A stretch of 64,000 nucleotides of DNA from the NCBI GenBank assembly GCA_965656495.1, contig CBFHKU010000004.1, positions 32,001 through 96,000 on the forward strand, read 5' to 3'. The DNA is from Coraliomargaritaceae bacterium. GTDB taxonomy: Bacteria > Verrucomicrobiota > Verrucomicrobiia > Opitutales > Coraliomargaritaceae. How positions within the stretch are numbered: position 1 is the first letter of the stretch; the number at the start of each line of letters is the position of its first letter. Position numbers: made by a program. Below, piece by piece: positions 18,001 to 27,000 of this stretch.

Positions 18001-21000
18001 GTAATTCCGCGTCGCGGTCTGCCGCCAGTTTCAAATACTTCGCCTCGTGCTCAAAGGCATAATCAAACACCTCGTGAATATTGGAAAAGTGGCGTGTGTA
18101 CCAATAACGGGCTTTCAAATTAAAAGTAGCCTGCCCCTCGATGAAGTAGCCCAGGACGATGCGTACTGTTTTCGAAGCACCGGGCTCGACCACAAAGGAA
18201 ATACCCGCCACTGGCCCCAGTGCGAAATTCGGGGTGCGCTGCTCACGCTCAAGGGCCTGCTCTACCCCAAACTCCACAAATTCCGAAACGCCCGCTGTAT
18301 CACTCGCAAAGCCCATGCGTTCACGCGTCACTGCTCCTTTGTACGACCCGTGCTGCGAAAGCGGCGACCAGGGAGTCGATCCCTCCAACGCGAAAAACCC
18401 TTCCCAGGATTCCTCGCTCTCATTGCGAAGCTCCAGTTCCAAAAAAGTGGCGGGCAAACTCGCAAATTTGAGTTCCTCCGCCTCGGAATGAGCCGGGTCC
18501 GGAATTTCGAAAAACGGCGTGCTCACTTTAAAACGTATCCCTTTCGCTTTAAACTGATCCGTCGCCCAATCGTAGCGGCGCTCAATCAAGGATTCATCCA
18601 GAATCGTCAGCCCTTTGTCGGCGGCTTCATCCGGTTTGCTATAGCGCTCCGCCTCGTTCGAAATCCCCTTGTAAAATGGCAGCGTCACCATTTGCCCCGA
18701 AGCGGTCCGATACCCGACAAAAACCGCACTGTCGGCGGGGCTGCCCCGCTCGAGTGCCATGCCACCCTCGGCGCCATGCATTCCAACGGTAAAGGAAGCG
18801 TGCGCTCCCATTGGTGAGTGCTGTGCGTGAAAGGAACTTGAGGGTAACATAAGCTATTAAAATAAGCTCAACAAATTATCAAAATACAGCCCTTGAGCCA
18901 AGCACGACAAATGAAGCCTATATTAAAACTAATGAAACCACCACATCCGCAGAAACCTTAAAAATGCACGCTTCCTGAGCACTCCCTACTCGCATAAGTT
19001 CAGGATTTTGAACTTACACAACCATATTCAGTTCATCTCCAATAACAAAAAATCATTGCTCAAAAACATTCTCTCACCTACATAAATCATATGCCATATT
19101 TCTTGACCATCATCGCTCTCATTTTCACGACCAGCCTCGCTCAGGCGCATTCCACTGGCGGGCATCACGAAGGCACTGCAGCCAACACCGTTCATTTCCT
19201 GACCGAGTTCAGCCATTTCGGCCCGGTATTATTAATTGCTGCCCTGCTTGTTATTGCCGGATTCGCCAGTCTGCGCTTCCGGAAATCGGAACGGTCCAAT
19301 TAAACGCAATCCACGGATGGCGCGTATACTCATGGCCACCGTGATATTAGCGACACCCTCATGAATCCTCTACTGATTCTGGGAGCGGCGGGGGCGGCAT
19401 GCCTCTATGCCACCGGTTCACTGCAAATCAAACGCGGCCTCAACAATGGTGCCAGCCTGCGGCGCACCGTTGCCACCACCAATGTTTTCATGGCGCTTTG
19501 GTCCCTGCCGCTTTTCTTTGTCGCGCGTGGCGATTTTGAGCTCGTCTCCTGGCTCACTGCCATGCTCGCCGGGGTCGCCCTTTTTCTGGGACGCATCCTC
19601 TCCGTCAAAGCCCTTGAAGTAGGTGACCTCTCGATCGTGGGCCCCCTCCTCGGTCTCAAAACCCTCCTCGTCGCGATTTTCTCCTTCGCCACCGGTCAGG
19701 CCGAACTCAACACCTGGCTCTGGACCGCCGCCATAACCGCCACCCTCGGCGTCATTCTCATTCAACGCGGTCCCCGCAAGCTCTCCACGAATCGACGCCA
19801 GGCCGCCGCCTACGCCGCCGGGGCAAGCATCCTTTTCGCAGGCTGTGATATCCTCGTCGTTGAAGCGCGTTCCCAACTCGGTATCGGCTGGCTCTCTCCG
19901 ACCCTTTTTATTACCCTTGCGCTCCTTGTTCCCTGCCTCGGTAAACTCACCCCGCCTGCCCCGGAGGCGCGCAAACCGATGTATCTCGGTTCCGTCATCA
20001 TGGGATTCCAAACGACCTTCGTTATCTTCCTCATCGGCCTCACCGGACAGGCCGTCATGATTAATATTATCTACGCTTCCCGCGCTATCTGGACCGTTGT
20101 TATTGACCGTTTCTATGGACGCGGCGAAGACGTTGCGGCCTTCTTCGTCTGGCGACTCCTCGGTGCCGCCCTGCTGGTCTTCTCGATTATACTGGTTATT
20201 TTTCTCCGCTAGATAAAATTGCGCGGTTCAGCTTCCCTGAAACAAATCCCTCCGCATCGAATTCAACCTCGCGGAAACCCAAGCCCTGAATCGCCGCCGT
20301 CAATTTTTCCCGCTGCGTCTCTAATTGATCCAAGGCATCTGCCTCCACTTCCACCCGCGCGGTCTCGCCATAATGGCGCACGCGGTTGATGCGAAAACCC
20401 GCTTCAGTCAACAGCGCCTCCGCCGCCTCAATCTGACGCAATTTCTCAATCGTTATACGTTCACCATAGGGCACCCGTGAGGATAAACATGGACTCGCGG
20501 GCTTATCCCAGCAAACCAAATTAAAGTGTTCCGCCAGTGCCCGCACCCCCGCTTTGTCCACCCCGCAATCCACCAAAGGCGAGCGCACCTTAAATTCCTC
20601 CGCCGCCGCCAAGCCGGGCCGGTAATCCCCCGTATCATCCGTGTTGGTTCCGTTCAAAACCCACCAGTCCGGATAATCCCCCGCCAACCCAAGCATTTCA
20701 TCGTAAAGGGTGTGCTTGCAAAAATAACAACGGTTGGTCGGATTCTCGAAATAATTGGGGTTCTCCATTTCGGCAGTCGCAATCACCCGGAGCGGCAAAT
20801 CCATCCCGCCCGCAAAATTTTTTGCGGCTTCCAGATCCGACAATTTTAAACTCGGAGACGCCGAGATCACCGCAAGGACGCGCTCCTTTCCCAAAAAATG
20901 CCGCGCCAAATACGCTACCAGCGAACTGTCCACCCCACCGGAAAAAGCCACCAAGGCACCGGGACATTGCCCATACCAAGCCTTGAGTGCTTCCAGCGCT

Positions 21001-24000: not shown

Positions 24001-27000
24001 GTGAAAATTTGAGGAAGTTGCGACGTGAAAGACTCATGACTTTTGGGGTGTTGACTGAAATGCTGCGTGTTGCCGATATTAACAACTTGAGAATGTCCAA
24101 AACATAGCTTGGAACCATCCGATTTCAAGCATGGATGCTCCAAATACCCCATGTCTGGAATCCAAACCGACCGCGACCCCGGAAGCGCATCCGAGCCAAG
24201 CCTTTAAGGTTGCACGAAGACAAACAAAGTCTTTTCCCCGACTACCATACCCGAGGAATTCAACGCCCTGACCACCACTTTTTCCCGCATTCCCGCACCG
24301 TAAGCGACCGGTTCCACCATCAACACATACTGCCCCGACTTTTGTGAATCGGGCGCGGCCTTTACCTGCAAAACCTCCCCATTGAAGCCCAGCGCACCCA
24401 GCTTCACCGCATGATCGGGATGCAACTGTACCCGCACCTCCCGTGGCCCCACCGCCCCGCGCTTCCAATAAAGGATTTCCGGCTGCAACTGCATCGCCTC
24501 CACAATATTCACCGCTAATTTCAAATACGCCACCGGTTCCGGCATCCCCTCGAGAAAAACCCGCAGCACACTCTCATTCCGCCCCTGCCGTTTACCCTTC
24601 TCGAAAACCGCCGCCACAACCGTCGATTCCCCCGCAGCCAGCACCCGCTTCGCCGGCAAAGCAGCCGTGCAACCACAACTGCTCTCCACCCGATTAAACC
24701 GCAACTCCGCAGCGCCCGTGTTCCTGACGCGGTATTCCACCCGCACCTCCGCATCCCCCGGCCCCATTTCCACTTCCGTCTCAGTCCGTTCCCATTCCAA
24801 TTCCACTTCTGGCGCAGCCGATGCCAGACCCGCAAGAACTAGGACCATCAAAAGCATCCATCCATACCGCTTCAACGCTCCACCTCGCCTTCAATCCCCC
24901 GCTCACCATCCCAACAAATCAAAATCACCGCCCCCAGGAGCAACAGACCGTTCCGTACCAACAAAACCGCATAAGGCGCCATCAAACCCATCGATCCAAA
25001 ACATCCACAGTCAACCTCCAGACCCCGTAGCCACGCGCTCAGGTGCAGACCCATAAAGCACAACAAAAGCAGACCGATCACCCAGGCACTCCCCCGCCGC
25101 ACACCCGGAAACAAGAGACCCAGCCCCGCCCACAATTCCAGCCAGGGCAAACCCAACGCCACCCAGCGCGCCCAGTCCGCTCCCACCACCTGATAGGATT
25201 CCACCGCCGTTGCAAACGCCAGCGGATCGCGCAACTTCGATGCCGCCGCCCACACAAACGCCACCCCCAGCACCACCCGCAAAAGCAAGCCTATCCAAAA
25301 CCTCGGCTTCATTCCTGCAAGGCCTCCCAGCCACCCTTCAACCAATAAACCTCCGCTCCCGTCACCGCTTCCCGCAAACGCATTGCCAATCGCTTACTCG
25401 ACCCACAGCCCGCCTCCGCGCAATACACCACCATCACCCTCGGTTCCTCCAGCCAAACCATCATCAATTCCATCACCCCCGTTCCCCAATTCGTTTCATT
25501 CAAATGAATCGCACCCGGTTCATGCCCCTCCGCATACTCAGCCGCAGTCCGCGCATCCACCCACAGCACCGCCTGCCCCCGCGCCGCCGACACTGAAATC
25601 TCCTCCTTGTCCACCCATTCACCCGCCGCCCACGGCACCGGTGACCAGCCCACTAAAACCGACAACACACTGCCCCCCAAAGTCAGTAGCAACAAGATCC
25701 AGCATTGGCGCACAATCAACATCCACCCAGCCTGAACCATTTAGCGCAAAAAACAAACCACGAATGAAACAAAAGAGGCGCACGTTGCAAGTTGTGGGTT
25801 GTTGGATCGGCACCGTGAAGGCTCAATGGACATCTTCTACTTTTCCGGCAGAGCCGGGAACCGCTTATCTTCGCTTATAAACACTAATATTTTTATCGTA
25901 TTGTTTTTAGCATTAGTGGATATAAGCGCCCATTAGCGGTCGCCAGCTAAGCTGGCCTCAGGGCAGATTGTAGGAAACTACGAATCACGCCGATCACGCG
26001 AATAAAGCATTGCCCGCGAAGGTACGCGAAGGGGAGCTGAAAGGTTAGGAAATGAAACCACGAACGACACGAAAAACACGAACCCGACTGAGCCGGGAAC
26101 CACTGATCTTCGCTTATAAACACCAATATTTTTATCGTATTGTTTTTAGCATTAGTGGATATAAGCACCCATTAGTGGTCGCCAGCTAAGCTGGCCTAAG
26201 GGCAGATTATAGGAAACTACGAATCACGCCGATCACGCGAATAAAGCATTGCCCGCGAAGAGGAGCAGGAAGGTTGGGAAATGGAACCACGAACGACACA
26301 AAAACCACGAACCCGGCAGAGCCGGGAACCGCTTATCTTTGCTTATAAACACTAATATTTTTGCTTTAAGGATAAGCGAAAATTAGCGCCCATTAGCGGT
26401 CGCCAGCTAAGCTGGCCTCAGTGCAGCGCACCGGAAAACGTCCGACATCGAACCCCGAACGCTGAAGCGATTTAGTGGTGGGAAGGTATGAAGGTGGAAA
26501 AGTGGGAATGTTTGAAATATGCTGCATCACCACTCCGTGTACTCGCTGCCTCTGTGGTGAGTTCGATGTTCAGCGTTCGATGCTCAATGTTCAAAGTTCC
26601 CTAACCTTCCAACCACTAAATCCCTTCAACGTTCAATGTTCGATGTTCAATGTTCAAAGTTCCCTAACCTTCCCACTTTCCCACCTTCCCACTTTCCCAC
26701 CCCTAAAACGGCATCACTGGTACACATGCTATTGCTTGGCGCGTGGGTTACTTTGATGCTGTGCCCACGGGGTGAGTTGATTTTTTGAAAAAAGGACTGA
26801 GCGTTTTCTTGAGGAGTGTGAAAGCCTTGGATTGACGCGGGGGTGTTTTGGGCGTTTAACACCCTTTTAATGAGTGCCAGTGATTCCGAAAAACCCAAAC
26901 CGAAATATAAACGTATCGTTCTGAAGCTGAGCGGTGAAGTCCTGCGAAATACGGAGGACGGCGAACCGATCAGTCCGGCGATTTTGACGGAAATATGCAC

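Follow-up and report, generated by a model that had tools for sequence, protein, structure and literature searches.

We analysed a window of 64,000 nucleotides from contig CBFHKU010000004.1 of a marine Verrucomicrobiota genome (Coraliomargaritaceae; completeness 99.36%); coordinates are window positions, position 1 being contig position 32,001. The window contains the genes of LarE, LarC and LarB, which belong to the pathway of the rare nickel-pincer cofactor, set between a transporter gene and the gene of an aldo-keto reductase (AKR).

19091..19303, plus strand: sm70, a 70-aa His-rich membrane mini-protein, candidate sixth gene of the module (ORF and conservation)
19361..20212, plus strand: EamA/DMT-family inner-membrane transporter, 283 aa (PF00892, 30.8 bits, cut-off 28.2)
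20196..21005, minus strand: LarE, PP-loop sulfur transferase of nickel-pincer cofactor synthesis, 269 aa (TIGR00268, 286.8 bits, cut-off 150)
21006..21077, no strand: intergenic region of 72 bp between the divergent LarE and LarC genes (coordinates)
21078..22301, plus strand: LarC, nickel-inserting cyclometallase, fused LarC1 and LarC2, 407 aa (PF01969, E 1.3e-125; TIGR00299, 185 bits; NF052512, 128 bits)
22305..23036, plus strand: LarB, NaAD carboxylase/hydrolase, 243 aa (NF033503, 305.3 bits, cut-off 175)
23033..24040, minus strand (ORF open to 24118): AKR, putatively of the NphT (nickel-pincer) type, 335-aa precursor (PF00248, E 2.2e-32 to 2.9e-32)
23963..24040, minus strand: predicted twin-arginine signal peptide, AKR residues 1-26, MSLSRRNFLKFSLGSAAALKSSTAWA, followed by E (motif, TAT_signal, conservation)

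The genes from EamA to the AKR lie where an earlier note on this DNA had put them (19361-24118) and belong to the families it had named; LarB, LarC and LarE all score above their NCBIfam equivalog cut-offs, and LarE has cysteines in a CxxC motif (93, 96) and at positions 147, 165 and 173. The five-gene module of that note stands as a conserved neighbourhood of at least three transcription units and not as a single operon, the strands of EamA-LarE-LarC-LarB-AKR running + - + + -. The convergent EamA and LarE genes overlap by 17 bp, a gap of 72 bp separates the divergent LarE and LarC, LarB follows LarC after 3 bp, and the AKR converges on LarB with a 4-bp overlap and is therefore not co-transcribed with the Lar genes. 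The gap between LarE and LarC is presumed to hold a shared promoter region; a promoter scan of these 72 bp returned no consensus site.

Among 78 AKR loci from three phyla, the order AKR-LarB-LarC-LarE-EamA is complete in 14 and LarBCE is adjacent to the AKR in 20. Four of five tested genomes with an unlinked AKR have LarC elsewhere; the fifth (G003, completeness unknown) showed no LarC. An EamA orthologue lies in the flank of 35 of the 78 loci, 21 of which have no Lar gene nearby; that this transporter accompanies the AKR also in the absence of nearby Lar genes is a new observation. The AKR-adjacent copy was the best match to EamA in each of five genomes (E 1e-37 to 1e-77), second-best matches reaching E 1e-18 to 1e-23. 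A role in the use of sugars from algal glycans, as had been suggested, is unsupported beyond close relatives: GH52, MFS and sulfatase genes neighbour the AKR in only four close relatives among the 78 loci, and elsewhere the flanks consist of housekeeping genes.

Directly upstream of EamA and on the same strand lies sm70, which has one TM helix, a basic tail and a signal peptide ending AQA/H; four of its His are conserved, and it recurs at the equivalent place in 11 further loci. A2, A19, H20, G23 and H35 are invariant in its alignment, H25 and H42 are kept in at least 90%, and one of the conserved His is the predicted mature N-terminus. No Pfam family exceeds its cut-off on sm70, one copy giving a weak match to the HupE_UreJ N-terminus (E 0.011). 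The sm70 profile matches 36 of the 101 Coraliomargaritaceae genomes. In all 29 genomes that have both sm70 and LarC, the two lie at most ~2.1 kb apart on one contig, also where EamA or the AKR is absent (G045, G046, G049, G095, G010). We propose sm70, newly described here, as a candidate member of the module.

The small His-rich protein CbtB works with the permease CbtA, and by analogy EamA and sm70 might be a two-part importer of nickel or a nickel complex that feeds LarC, and not be concerned with substrate traffic. The conserved His of sm70 and its nearness to LarC are in keeping with such an importer, as is a Coraliomargarita chromosome in which EamA stays with LarE-LarC-LarB and the AKR lies ~1 Mb away; furthermore, a search of the host genome for three Ni/Co-importer families (NiCoT, HupE/UreJ, CbiM) gave no match at E<=0.01. 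However, no His, Cys or Met is conserved among the EamA orthologues, sm70 is absent from the 21 loci where EamA stays with the AKR without Lar genes, seven LarC-negative genomes keep sm70 (between thrS and yhbY), and to our knowledge there is no DMT-family nickel permease. We regard the importer as unlikely. The invariant residues of EamA are R78, D89, S91, K100, D163, Q217, N235, Y238, R241, W244 and R265, and its conserved polar residues are Arg, Lys, Asp, Asn, Gln, Tyr and Ser. The most likely role that we infer for EamA is to carry the substrate or product of the AKR reaction, possibly anionic, over the inner membrane, and sm70 is most likely a metal-binding protein that faces the periplasm.

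Several lines of evidence suggest that the AKR is itself a nickel-pincer enzyme. NphT (PDB 9YEB), a hydride transferase that depends on NPMN, belongs to the AKR superfamily (Semersky et al., Nat Chem 2026, PMC13524815). As stated before and reproduced by us, 9YEB is the second-best PDB sequence match to the AKR (E 1.7e-21); with an AKR profile the match reaches E 3.6e-28. The profile alignment places E82, Y87, K112 and H150 of the AKR on the NphT tetrad D47, Y52, K75 and H106, T185 on T142, H187 of the GFTGH motif on the Ni ligand H144, and K240 of the GMK motif on the tether Lys K200, with residue roles as given in PMC13524815, whose His144 and Lys200 are His147 and Lys203 of the 9YEB chain; the earlier assignment of the last two was thereby recovered. 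This HMMER alignment ends at the tether Lys and covers neither the W218/Y219 loop nor the AMP-excluding cavity. Across the 78 loci the Ni-ligand His, the tether Lys, the tetrad Tyr, Lys and His, and an Asp or Glu are each present in all 78, and the Thr in 77 (Ser in one). Among 82 full-length representatives of 50%-identity clusters, 76 have both His and Lys, and 55 of these 76 also carry the RR motif. Every sequence feature named as a criterion in the NphT paper is found for the AKR: it has the His/Lys motif and the catalytic tetrad, and LarBCE are encoded nearby while LarA is missing.

The distribution of the AKR points the same way. With the caveat that related genomes do not count as independent, LarC occurs in 41 of the 101 Coraliomargaritaceae genomes, the AKR (E<=1e-60) in 37, all of them inside the 41, and the LarA N-domain PF09861 over cut-off in none, figures that agree with those given earlier; the host genome has no PF09861 match at E<=1. 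None of the 60 LarC-negative genomes has the AKR. The association survives gains and losses within genera: LarC and the AKR each occur in one of nine genomes of genus g8, the same genome (G020), and in genus g16 (23 genomes) two of the four LarC-positive genomes have the AKR. All 17 AKR-positive genomes in a 401-genome sample of the phylum are LarC-positive, but LarC is common there (235/401) and the nesting is therefore weak at this level. Its nesting within LarC-positive genomes (37/37 and 17/17) upholds the AKR as a user of the cofactor, though not as the sole candidate: a second AKR of 404 aa in the same genome has the Ni-ligand His, no tether Lys and no signal, and 27 of its 29 carrier genomes are LarC-positive. 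That this His-only AKR also tracks LarC had not been described.

Such a second client belongs to a different account of the locus, under which the exported AKR would be a nicotinoprotein with tightly bound NAD(P), its synteny with the Lar genes inherited and their products serving another enzyme, for instance the 404-aa AKR. The AlphaFold2 model of the AKR is a TIM barrel (pLDDT 83.4, pTM 0.82) whose best PDB matches, by sequence and by fold, are NAD(P)-dependent AKRs, 9YEB not being among the Foldseek matches listed (library up to April 2026). The lack of co-transcription with the Lar genes and the precedent of GFOR and AAOR (PMC4628093) also favour this account. The absence of the AKR from every LarC-negative family genome and the persistence of the association within genera are hard to reconcile with an AKR independent of the Lar products, and we consider the nicotinoprotein quite improbable.

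The nickel-pincer reading gains a further element from the N-terminus of the AKR. The ORF does extend to 24118, as noted previously, giving 361 aa; the true start is probably the ATG at 24040 (Met27 of the longer ORF), giving 335 aa, judging by database homologues, which begin M-x-x-[ST]-R-R. The precursor then starts with a canonical twin-arginine signal, in agreement with the earlier note, reading SRRNFLK...AWA/E with predicted cleavage after AWA. R6, R7 and F9 are invariant among 29 homologues, 18 of 29 relatives match Pfam TAT_signal at E<=0.01, and RRxF[LIVFM] lies 23-43 residues ahead of the barrel in 76 of the 78 loci (one of the other two is cut by a contig end, one is unclear), the S/T-R-R-x-F-L-K motif and AxA site likewise being found in 76 of 78 across three phyla. 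Residues 1-19 are unstructured in the AlphaFold2 model, and TatA and TatC are over cut-off in the host genome. Relatives that have the His and Lys and no signal begin directly at the first hairpin, and the N-terminal extension is therefore an added module. That the RR is non-functional, serves only as a membrane anchor or belongs to another start, leaving a nickel-pincer enzyme that is cytoplasmic like NphT, would fit the marginal TAT_signal score (22.5 bits, cut-off 22.7), the weakly hydrophobic h-region FSLGSAAAL, the longer ORF and the prediction of export from sequence alone, yet the fixed spacing of motif, h-region and AxA site from the barrel across three phyla, the start of the homologues, the added module and the Tat genes make this very doubtful.

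The most reasonable explanation is that the AKR is an NphT-type nickel-pincer enzyme that receives its cofactor in the cytoplasm and is exported by Tat in the folded state; we assign this a probability of about 0.68. Because the cofactor genes lie beside an AKR that has both the binding residues and an export signal, the site of action of this nickel enzyme is probably extracytoplasmic. LarB, LarE and LarC would make the cofactor (NPN/NPMN) in the cytoplasm, where it would be bound to Lys240 as a thioamide with its nickel held by His187, and the folded holo-enzyme would then leave through TatA/TatC by way of the SRRNFLK signal, with cleavage after AWA. In the periplasm, without NAD(P)H, the AKR could shuttle hydride between carbonyls and alcohols, because the hydride carrier belongs to the protein itself; this would be dismutation or transhydrogenation as shown for NphT on aldoses. 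The cofactor is reported to have been handled anaerobically in the NphT work (PMC13524815), which is a point against its stability in an oxic periplasm. The exported nickel-pincer enzyme of the earlier note keeps its support at the level of sequence, but not its glycan role beyond close relatives. Its new periplasmic branch fits a large, multi-phylum clade (580 matches in species-level genomes) and is not specific to this family.

Compared with known systems, the AKR is closest to NphT, with which it shares the AKR TIM barrel, Ni-ligand His, tether Lys, Asp/Tyr/Lys/His tetrad and Thr contact, and LarB, LarC and LarE nearby with LarA absent. Unlike NphT, whose chain starts at the first hairpin, it has a 26-residue twin-arginine signal, its own conserved KGFGGSRRxHLH segment past the tether Lys at which the alignment ends, a variable Cys/His-rich C-terminal tail, linkage to an EamA permease and the His-rich sm70, and a host in a marine Verrucomicrobiota lineage; the main text of the NphT paper makes no mention of periplasm, twin-arginine, signal peptide, Tat, secretion or export (PMC13524815). 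LarA lactate racemase and its homologues depend on the same LarB/LarE/LarC pathway and are described as holding the cofactor through a His and a Lys (PMC13524815), but differ in fold. AKR11C1 of Bacillus halodurans (1YNP/1YNQ), a canonical NADPH-dependent AKR, is the best match both in PDB sequence (E 1.1e-22; profile 8.1e-31) and in fold (Foldseek E 6.3e-19, TM 0.67/0.74), the match starting at residue 18-22 of its 317-residue chain; in contrast to the AKR, it has Ser at the Ni-ligand position (G-I-S-S vs G-F-T-G-H in 1YNP). The bound cofactor of Zymomonas GFOR and Caulobacter AAOR is NADP. Both are described as Tat-exported periplasmic sugar oxidoreductases that work with the bound cofactor and none added, oxidising one sugar while reducing another or dismutating a single aldose to acid and alcohol (PMC4628093). 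The working mode proposed for the AKR resembles theirs in Tat export and in a bound, non-exchanging hydride carrier, but they have the Gfo/Idh/MocA fold, whereas the AKR, not a member of that family, combines the AKR fold with what would be a covalently tethered nickel-pincer nucleotide.

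All five genes that the earlier note had placed between 19361 and 24118 are present there: an EamA-type permease, three genes of nickel-pincer cofactor synthesis (LarE, LarC and LarB) and an aldo-keto reductase (AKR).

Features of the window, and one gene outside it.
6015–18850: polysaccharide-use block lying upstream of the EamA gene, with two sulfatases, a GHL6-like protein, an AraC regulator that includes a periplasmic-binding domain, an MFS_2 sugar transporter and a member of the GH52 beta-xylosidase family
19091–19303, plus strand: 70-residue open reading frame (the mini-protein), directly upstream of the EamA gene and on the same strand
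19361–20212, plus strand: EamA/DMT permease (PF00892)
20196–21005, minus strand: LarE (NCBIfam equivalog)
21078–22301, plus strand: LarC (NCBIfam equivalog)
22305–23036, plus strand: LarB (NCBIfam equivalog)
23033–24118, minus strand: AKR open reading frame (PF00248), likely start at 24040
24204–25740, minus strand: DUF1573, MauE/DoxX-like and rhodanese genes, on the strand of the AKR and directly upstream of it
Contig C2 of the same genome, 38188–39399 (locus L102:1423-2637): 404-residue AKR without a signal, whose GFSTH histidine aligns to His187 of the window AKR and which lacks the tether lysine

The Lar proteins exceed their NCBIfam equivalog cut-offs by wide margins (LarE, 286.8 bits against 150; LarC, 185.1 against 90 and 127.9 against 50 in two models; LarB, 305.3 against 175). 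LarE carries a CxxC pair (Cys93, Cys96) plus Cys173 in a PASPCLSSR stretch; a trio of this kind is typical of LarE proteins with an iron-sulfur cluster, as opposed to the sacrificial ones with a single Cys. The EamA and LarE genes are convergent and share 17 bp at their ends, 72 bp separate the divergent LarE and LarC, LarB starts 3 bp after the end of LarC, and LarB and the AKR are convergent with a 4 bp overlap; the five genes are not one operon. A promoter and terminator scan returned site counts at chance level; a -35/-10-like site at 24128–24101 on the minus strand, compatible with an AKR start at 24040, is given no weight. An Rfam scan of 18500–27000 at E ≤ 1 found no riboswitch or other RNA family. 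Two metatranscriptome runs of one study contain short contigs, 90–99% alike, that cover parts of LarC, LarB, the AKR and upstream genes, and these are no evidence that this organism transcribes the genes, nor do they mark where transcripts end. The window covers positions 32001–96000 of contig C4 in an assembly of 2.06 Mb that is rated 99.36% complete; the nearest database relatives of the window are labelled Opitutia, Coraliomargaritaceae or Puniceicoccaceae.

The AKR matches PF00248 with E 2.2e-32. An AlphaFold2 model built on a 29-sequence alignment (pLDDT 83.4, pTM 0.82) is a barrel of strands alternating with helices, with residues 1–19 and 320–335 unstructured, and its top PDB fold matches by Foldseek are all AKRs. 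The Foldseek matches listed from the PDB (library to 8 April 2026) are NAD(P)-type AKRs alone, without 9YEB among them. That entry is NphT (PMC13524815), an AKR-fold enzyme whose gene adjoins LarB, LarC and LarE in clusters that lack LarA; it holds a nickel-pincer mononucleotide (NPMN) covalently on Lys200 with His144 on the nickel, retains the AKR tetrad Asp47, Tyr52, Lys75 and His106, and dismutates aldoses to lactone and alditol with no need of NAD(P). A single-sequence PDB search bears out the earlier note in returning 9YEB as second match with E 1.7e-21. The top match, AKR11C1 (1YNP), has a serine where NphT-type enzymes have the nickel-ligand histidine; its UniProt entry, Q9KE47, appears in the NphT paper as a characterized NAD(P)+-binding AKR (PMC13524815).

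Residue matching used a profile of 29 homologues, which aligns to 9YEB with E 3.6e-28 from the first hairpin to the tether lysine; the printed 9YEB chain was counted and the paper's offset of 3 subtracted. Conservation was read from a one-genome-per-species scan that gave 599 pattern matches and 580 confirmed relatives, the best 80 of which were kept as 78 loci.

Residues of the window AKR (numbered from 24040), NphT counterparts in the profile alignment, and conservation among the 78 loci.
Glu82: NphT Asp47; Asp in 55 loci, Glu in 23
Tyr87: NphT Tyr52; 78 of 78
Lys112: NphT Lys75; 78 of 78
His150: NphT His106; 78 of 78
Thr185: NphT Thr142; Thr in 77 of 78
His187 (GFTGH): NphT His144 (chain His147), nickel ligand; 78 of 78
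Met239-Lys240 (GMK): NphT Ile199-Lys200 (chain Lys203), tether, last HMMER column; Lys in 78 of 78

The nickel-ligand histidine and the tether lysine thus fall where the earlier note had aligned them. The alignment with NphT runs to Lys200, short of the W218/Y219 loop, and does not bear on how large the cofactor cavity is; the NphT type is further marked by a shortened cofactor cavity without room for the AMP half of NAD(P), a covalent NPMN adduct of +450 Da and hydride transfer that depends on NPMN. In the paper, NphT-like enzymes were sought as those with LarB, LarC and LarE near and LarA absent within 20 ORFs (PMC13524815); here the three genes lie within 3 kb and the genome has no LarA N-domain. 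A LarA-dependent lactate racemase can be set aside, as the genome holds no PF09861 at E ≤ 1.

A feature that sets the window enzyme apart from NphT is its N-terminus. The reading frame is open from 24118, and because database homologues begin M-x-x-[ST]-R-R translation probably starts from the ATG at 24040, for a protein of 335 residues. The sequence then opens MSLSRRNFLKFSLGSAAALKSSTAWA/EAAA (slash, predicted cleavage), in which SRRNFLK, FSLGSAAAL and AWA/E correspond to an S/T-R-R-x-F-L-K consensus, a core that is mildly hydrophobic and a cleavage site of the AxA type; on this reading motif, h-region and AxA site of a twin-arginine signal are all in place. An RRxF[LIVFM] motif stands 23–43 residues ahead of the barrel in 76 of the 78 loci, and of the other two, one is truncated by a contig end and one is ambiguous. 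The very short Pfam model TAT_signal (PF10518) narrowly misses the AKR, at 22.5 bits against a gathering score of 22.7 (E 1e-4), and is matched by 18 of 29 relatives at E ≤ 0.01. The genome encodes TatC (E 3.1e-47) and TatA (E 2.4e-19), both over cut-off. At the other end of the protein, the tail (23033–23080, residues about 320–335) is variable, disordered and rich in Cys and His, here ending ...HYEADCCHRRQHNA; it contains CC in most verrucomicrobial relatives (e.g. ...DGACCGGSxxA), and Cys is absent in a few marine ones.

The signal-bearing form is widespread. The 78 loci are labelled as several classes of Verrucomicrobiota, Planctomycetota and Acidobacteriota; one carrier is the cultivable Cerasicoccus frondis NBRC 105381 (locus L021). 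Searched exhaustively with HMMER, 1.84 billion representatives of clusters at 50% identity supplied a list of 150 best matches, 82 of them full-length; 76 of these 82 carry both His and Lys, 55 of the 76 with a strict RR motif, and among the remainder are several near-variants and others that begin directly at the hairpin. Both counts point to a major branch of signal-bearing forms around the query rather than a peculiarity of one family. Four loci from Planctomycetota and Acidobacteriota (L071, L075, L077, L079, at about 6700–9050) hold tandem AKR paralogues, both with the His/Lys motif, and in three of the four the RR signal is on the downstream copy only; a heterodimer co-exported on one signal ('hitchhiking') would fit this pattern.

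Co-occurrence with the cofactor genes follows the counts of the earlier note, which we reproduced in 101 Coraliomargaritaceae genomes: LarC is found in 41, the AKR (E ≤ 1e-60) in 37, and the LarA N-domain PF09861 is over cut-off in none of the 101. Each of the 37 also has LarC, and the 60 LarC-negative genomes are all without the AKR. The agreement persists within patchy genera: in g8 a single genome of nine (G020) has both genes, in g16 LarC is in 4 of 23 genomes and the AKR in two of those four, and in g19 the figures are 9 and 8 of 19. A phylum sample of 401 genomes has the AKR in 17, all with LarC, which adds little because LarC is common there (235 of 401). Five genomes have an unlinked AKR, and in four of them LarC lies elsewhere. 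No statistics are attached to these counts, as related genomes are non-independent samples.

In the four LarC-positive family genomes without the window-type AKR, the LarE/LarC-LarB block is retained but LarB has no client gene beside it. One (G015) encodes, elsewhere in the genome, a Tat-signal AKR that is more distant and shows GVSGH and AMKTM; two (G066 and G070; loci L091 and L092) have a Tat-signal AKR of 400 residues that combines GFSCH and SMKEM with a Cys-rich tail, CPGCSGC; and in the fourth (G095) the sole His-motif AKR is signal-less and has the His only. A phage-type integrase gene in this last genome (L087:4354-5367) lies about 1 kb past LarB, on the side where other genomes have the AKR, a hint that the AKR was lost by rearrangement.

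The window genome has three PF00248 genes, namely a canonical one without His at the nickel-ligand position, the Tat-signal AKR and the 404-residue signal-less AKR on contig C2. This last type occurs in 29 of the 101 family genomes, 27 of them LarC-positive, the two exceptions being assemblies 90% and 81% complete. It may be a second, cytoplasmic and non-covalent user of the cofactor, and the Tat-signal AKR is therefore not to be regarded as the sole one. DUF362, considered as another client, is not over cut-off in this genome.

Two membrane components accompany the module. The permease matches PF00892 over residues 6–134 (30.8 bits against 28.2), and its second half weakly resembles YdcZ, below cut-off (21.8 against 24). 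An orthologue lies in the fetched flank of 35 of the 78 loci, in 14 of 20 with Lar genes and 21 of 58 without; in the latter 21 loci the two genes converge, in most at 67–1059 bp and in two at about 4 kb. In all five genomes of this group that were tested, the copy beside the AKR matches the window permease far better than any other gene of the genome. On a complete Coraliomargarita chromosome the permease gene stands beside LarE-LarC-LarB with the AKR about 1 Mb away. An ESM Atlas search returned only EamA clusters of Verrucomicrobiota. Orthologues conserve the polar residues Arg78, Asp89, Ser91, Lys100, Asp163, Gln217, Asn235, Tyr238, Arg241, Trp244 and Arg265 and, in the alignment, no His or Cys, a pattern that suits a bare metal ion less than an organic, perhaps anionic, substrate, one candidate being an aldonate that the AKR would produce. 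In 16 loci of Methylacidiphilales and subdivision-6 type (L045:9000-9329 and 15 further ones), a conserved 109-residue protein with four transmembrane helices and no Pfam family sits between the AKR and the convergent EamA gene; it is absent from the window.

The mini-protein has a signal peptide ending AQA/H, a single transmembrane helix and a tail of basic residues. Four His are conserved, the first of them predicted to become the mature N-terminus. A counterpart occupies the same place, adjoining EamA/LarE, in 11 further loci, and a profile search detects the mini-protein in 36 of the 101 family genomes. In every family genome that has it together with LarC (29 of 29), no more than about 2.1 kb separates the two, even where no EamA gene intervenes or the AKR is missing; one genus has seven LarC-negative genomes that carry it between thrS and yhbY. 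No Pfam family is over cut-off, with a weak match to the HupE_UreJ N-terminus. None of the three nickel/cobalt-importer families searched for in the window genome (NiCoT, HupE/UreJ and CbiM) was found, which makes a role in nickel capture plausible; the mini-protein may bind a metal, possibly nickel.

What the AKR acts on is less well indicated. The earlier note had favoured sugars from algal glycans, and a polysaccharide-use block does lie nearby. The GH52 gene, though, neighbours the module in only four close relatives among the 78 loci, and AKR flanks in distant lineages are housekeeping genes, which leaves that role possible but unsupported. The DUF1573-MauE-rhodanese trio flanks the AKR in the closest relatives only (L003, L005, L008 and in part L027); trio and GH52 alike, as neighbours in just 2–4 close relatives among the 78 loci, were rejected as parts of the module.

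Synthesis of the nickel-pincer cofactor takes place in the cytoplasm, by enzymes that consume ATP and CTP, and an exported user must therefore be loaded before export. The Tat system transports folded, cofactor-bearing proteins (PMC5936819). We propose that the AKR would take up its cofactor in the cytoplasm and be exported folded by Tat, with the covalent Lys tether keeping the cofactor on the protein during passage; in the periplasm, the protein-bound hydride carrier could then serve redox-neutral dismutation or transhydrogenation, as for NphT. Of the earlier note, then, the observation is confirmed and the core interpretation, an exported NphT-type nickel-pincer AKR, is well supported at the level of sequence; its physiological story is speculative. 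A broader reading joins four parts into a self-contained extracytoplasmic hydride-shuttle system: a tethered nickel-pincer cofactor would pass through Tat inside the AKR, making this the first nickel-pincer enzyme outside the cytoplasm; aldoses or aldehydes would be dismutated in the periplasm without cellular reductant; the four-His membrane mini-protein and the DMT/EamA permease would form a new nickel acquisition route; and the covalent Lys tether would be what enables export, such that signal-less relatives like the 404-residue AKR, with His and no Lys, can lose it. We put the chance that all four hold together at roughly one in eight.

Relative to what is in print, the exported branch would be new; what this analysis adds to the earlier note is the permease link, the second AKR and the His-rich mini-protein. 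The main text of the NphT paper does not mention periplasm, twin-arginine, signal peptide, Tat, secretion or export (PMC13524815), and six Verrucomicrobiota taxon names are absent from the searched part of its supplements (PMC13524815). Its member lists (427 or 798 sequences) may well include Tat-bearing proteins; database relatives of the AKR carry UniParc or GenBank identifiers only. Our literature search found no paper joining nickel pincer with twin-arginine, and the one that combines LarB, LarC and LarE with periplasm is, by its listing, an unrelated Lactobacillus genome study.

The known nickel-pincer enzymes were all LarA-type racemases until AKR-fold users were described in 2026. A Tat-exported branch, if real, would bring organometallic nickel chemistry into the periplasm and, given its size (580 matches), would mean many additional nickel enzymes in aerobic bacteria of marine, freshwater and soil habitats. 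It bears on cofactor stability in oxygen, on the covalent tether as a prerequisite for export and on the nickel supply of a 2-Mb marine genome without a recognised nickel importer, and its members are candidate cofactor-free biocatalysts.

NphT, the one characterised AKR-fold user of the nickel pincer, has no signal peptide, whereas the window AKR carries a predicted Tat signal. In this respect the closer parallel is with Zymomonas GFOR and Caulobacter AAOR, which are Tat-exported and need no added cofactor (PMC4628093). The logic of a bound hydride carrier without added cofactor is the same as that proposed here, but the likeness is one of working principle only: GFOR and AAOR have the Gfo/Idh/MocA fold with bound NADP, while the window enzyme belongs to PF00248 and not PF01408. 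If the proposal holds, the exported AKRs would be a second, independent solution to hydride transfer without NAD(P)H, the bound NADP of GFOR and AAOR being the first.
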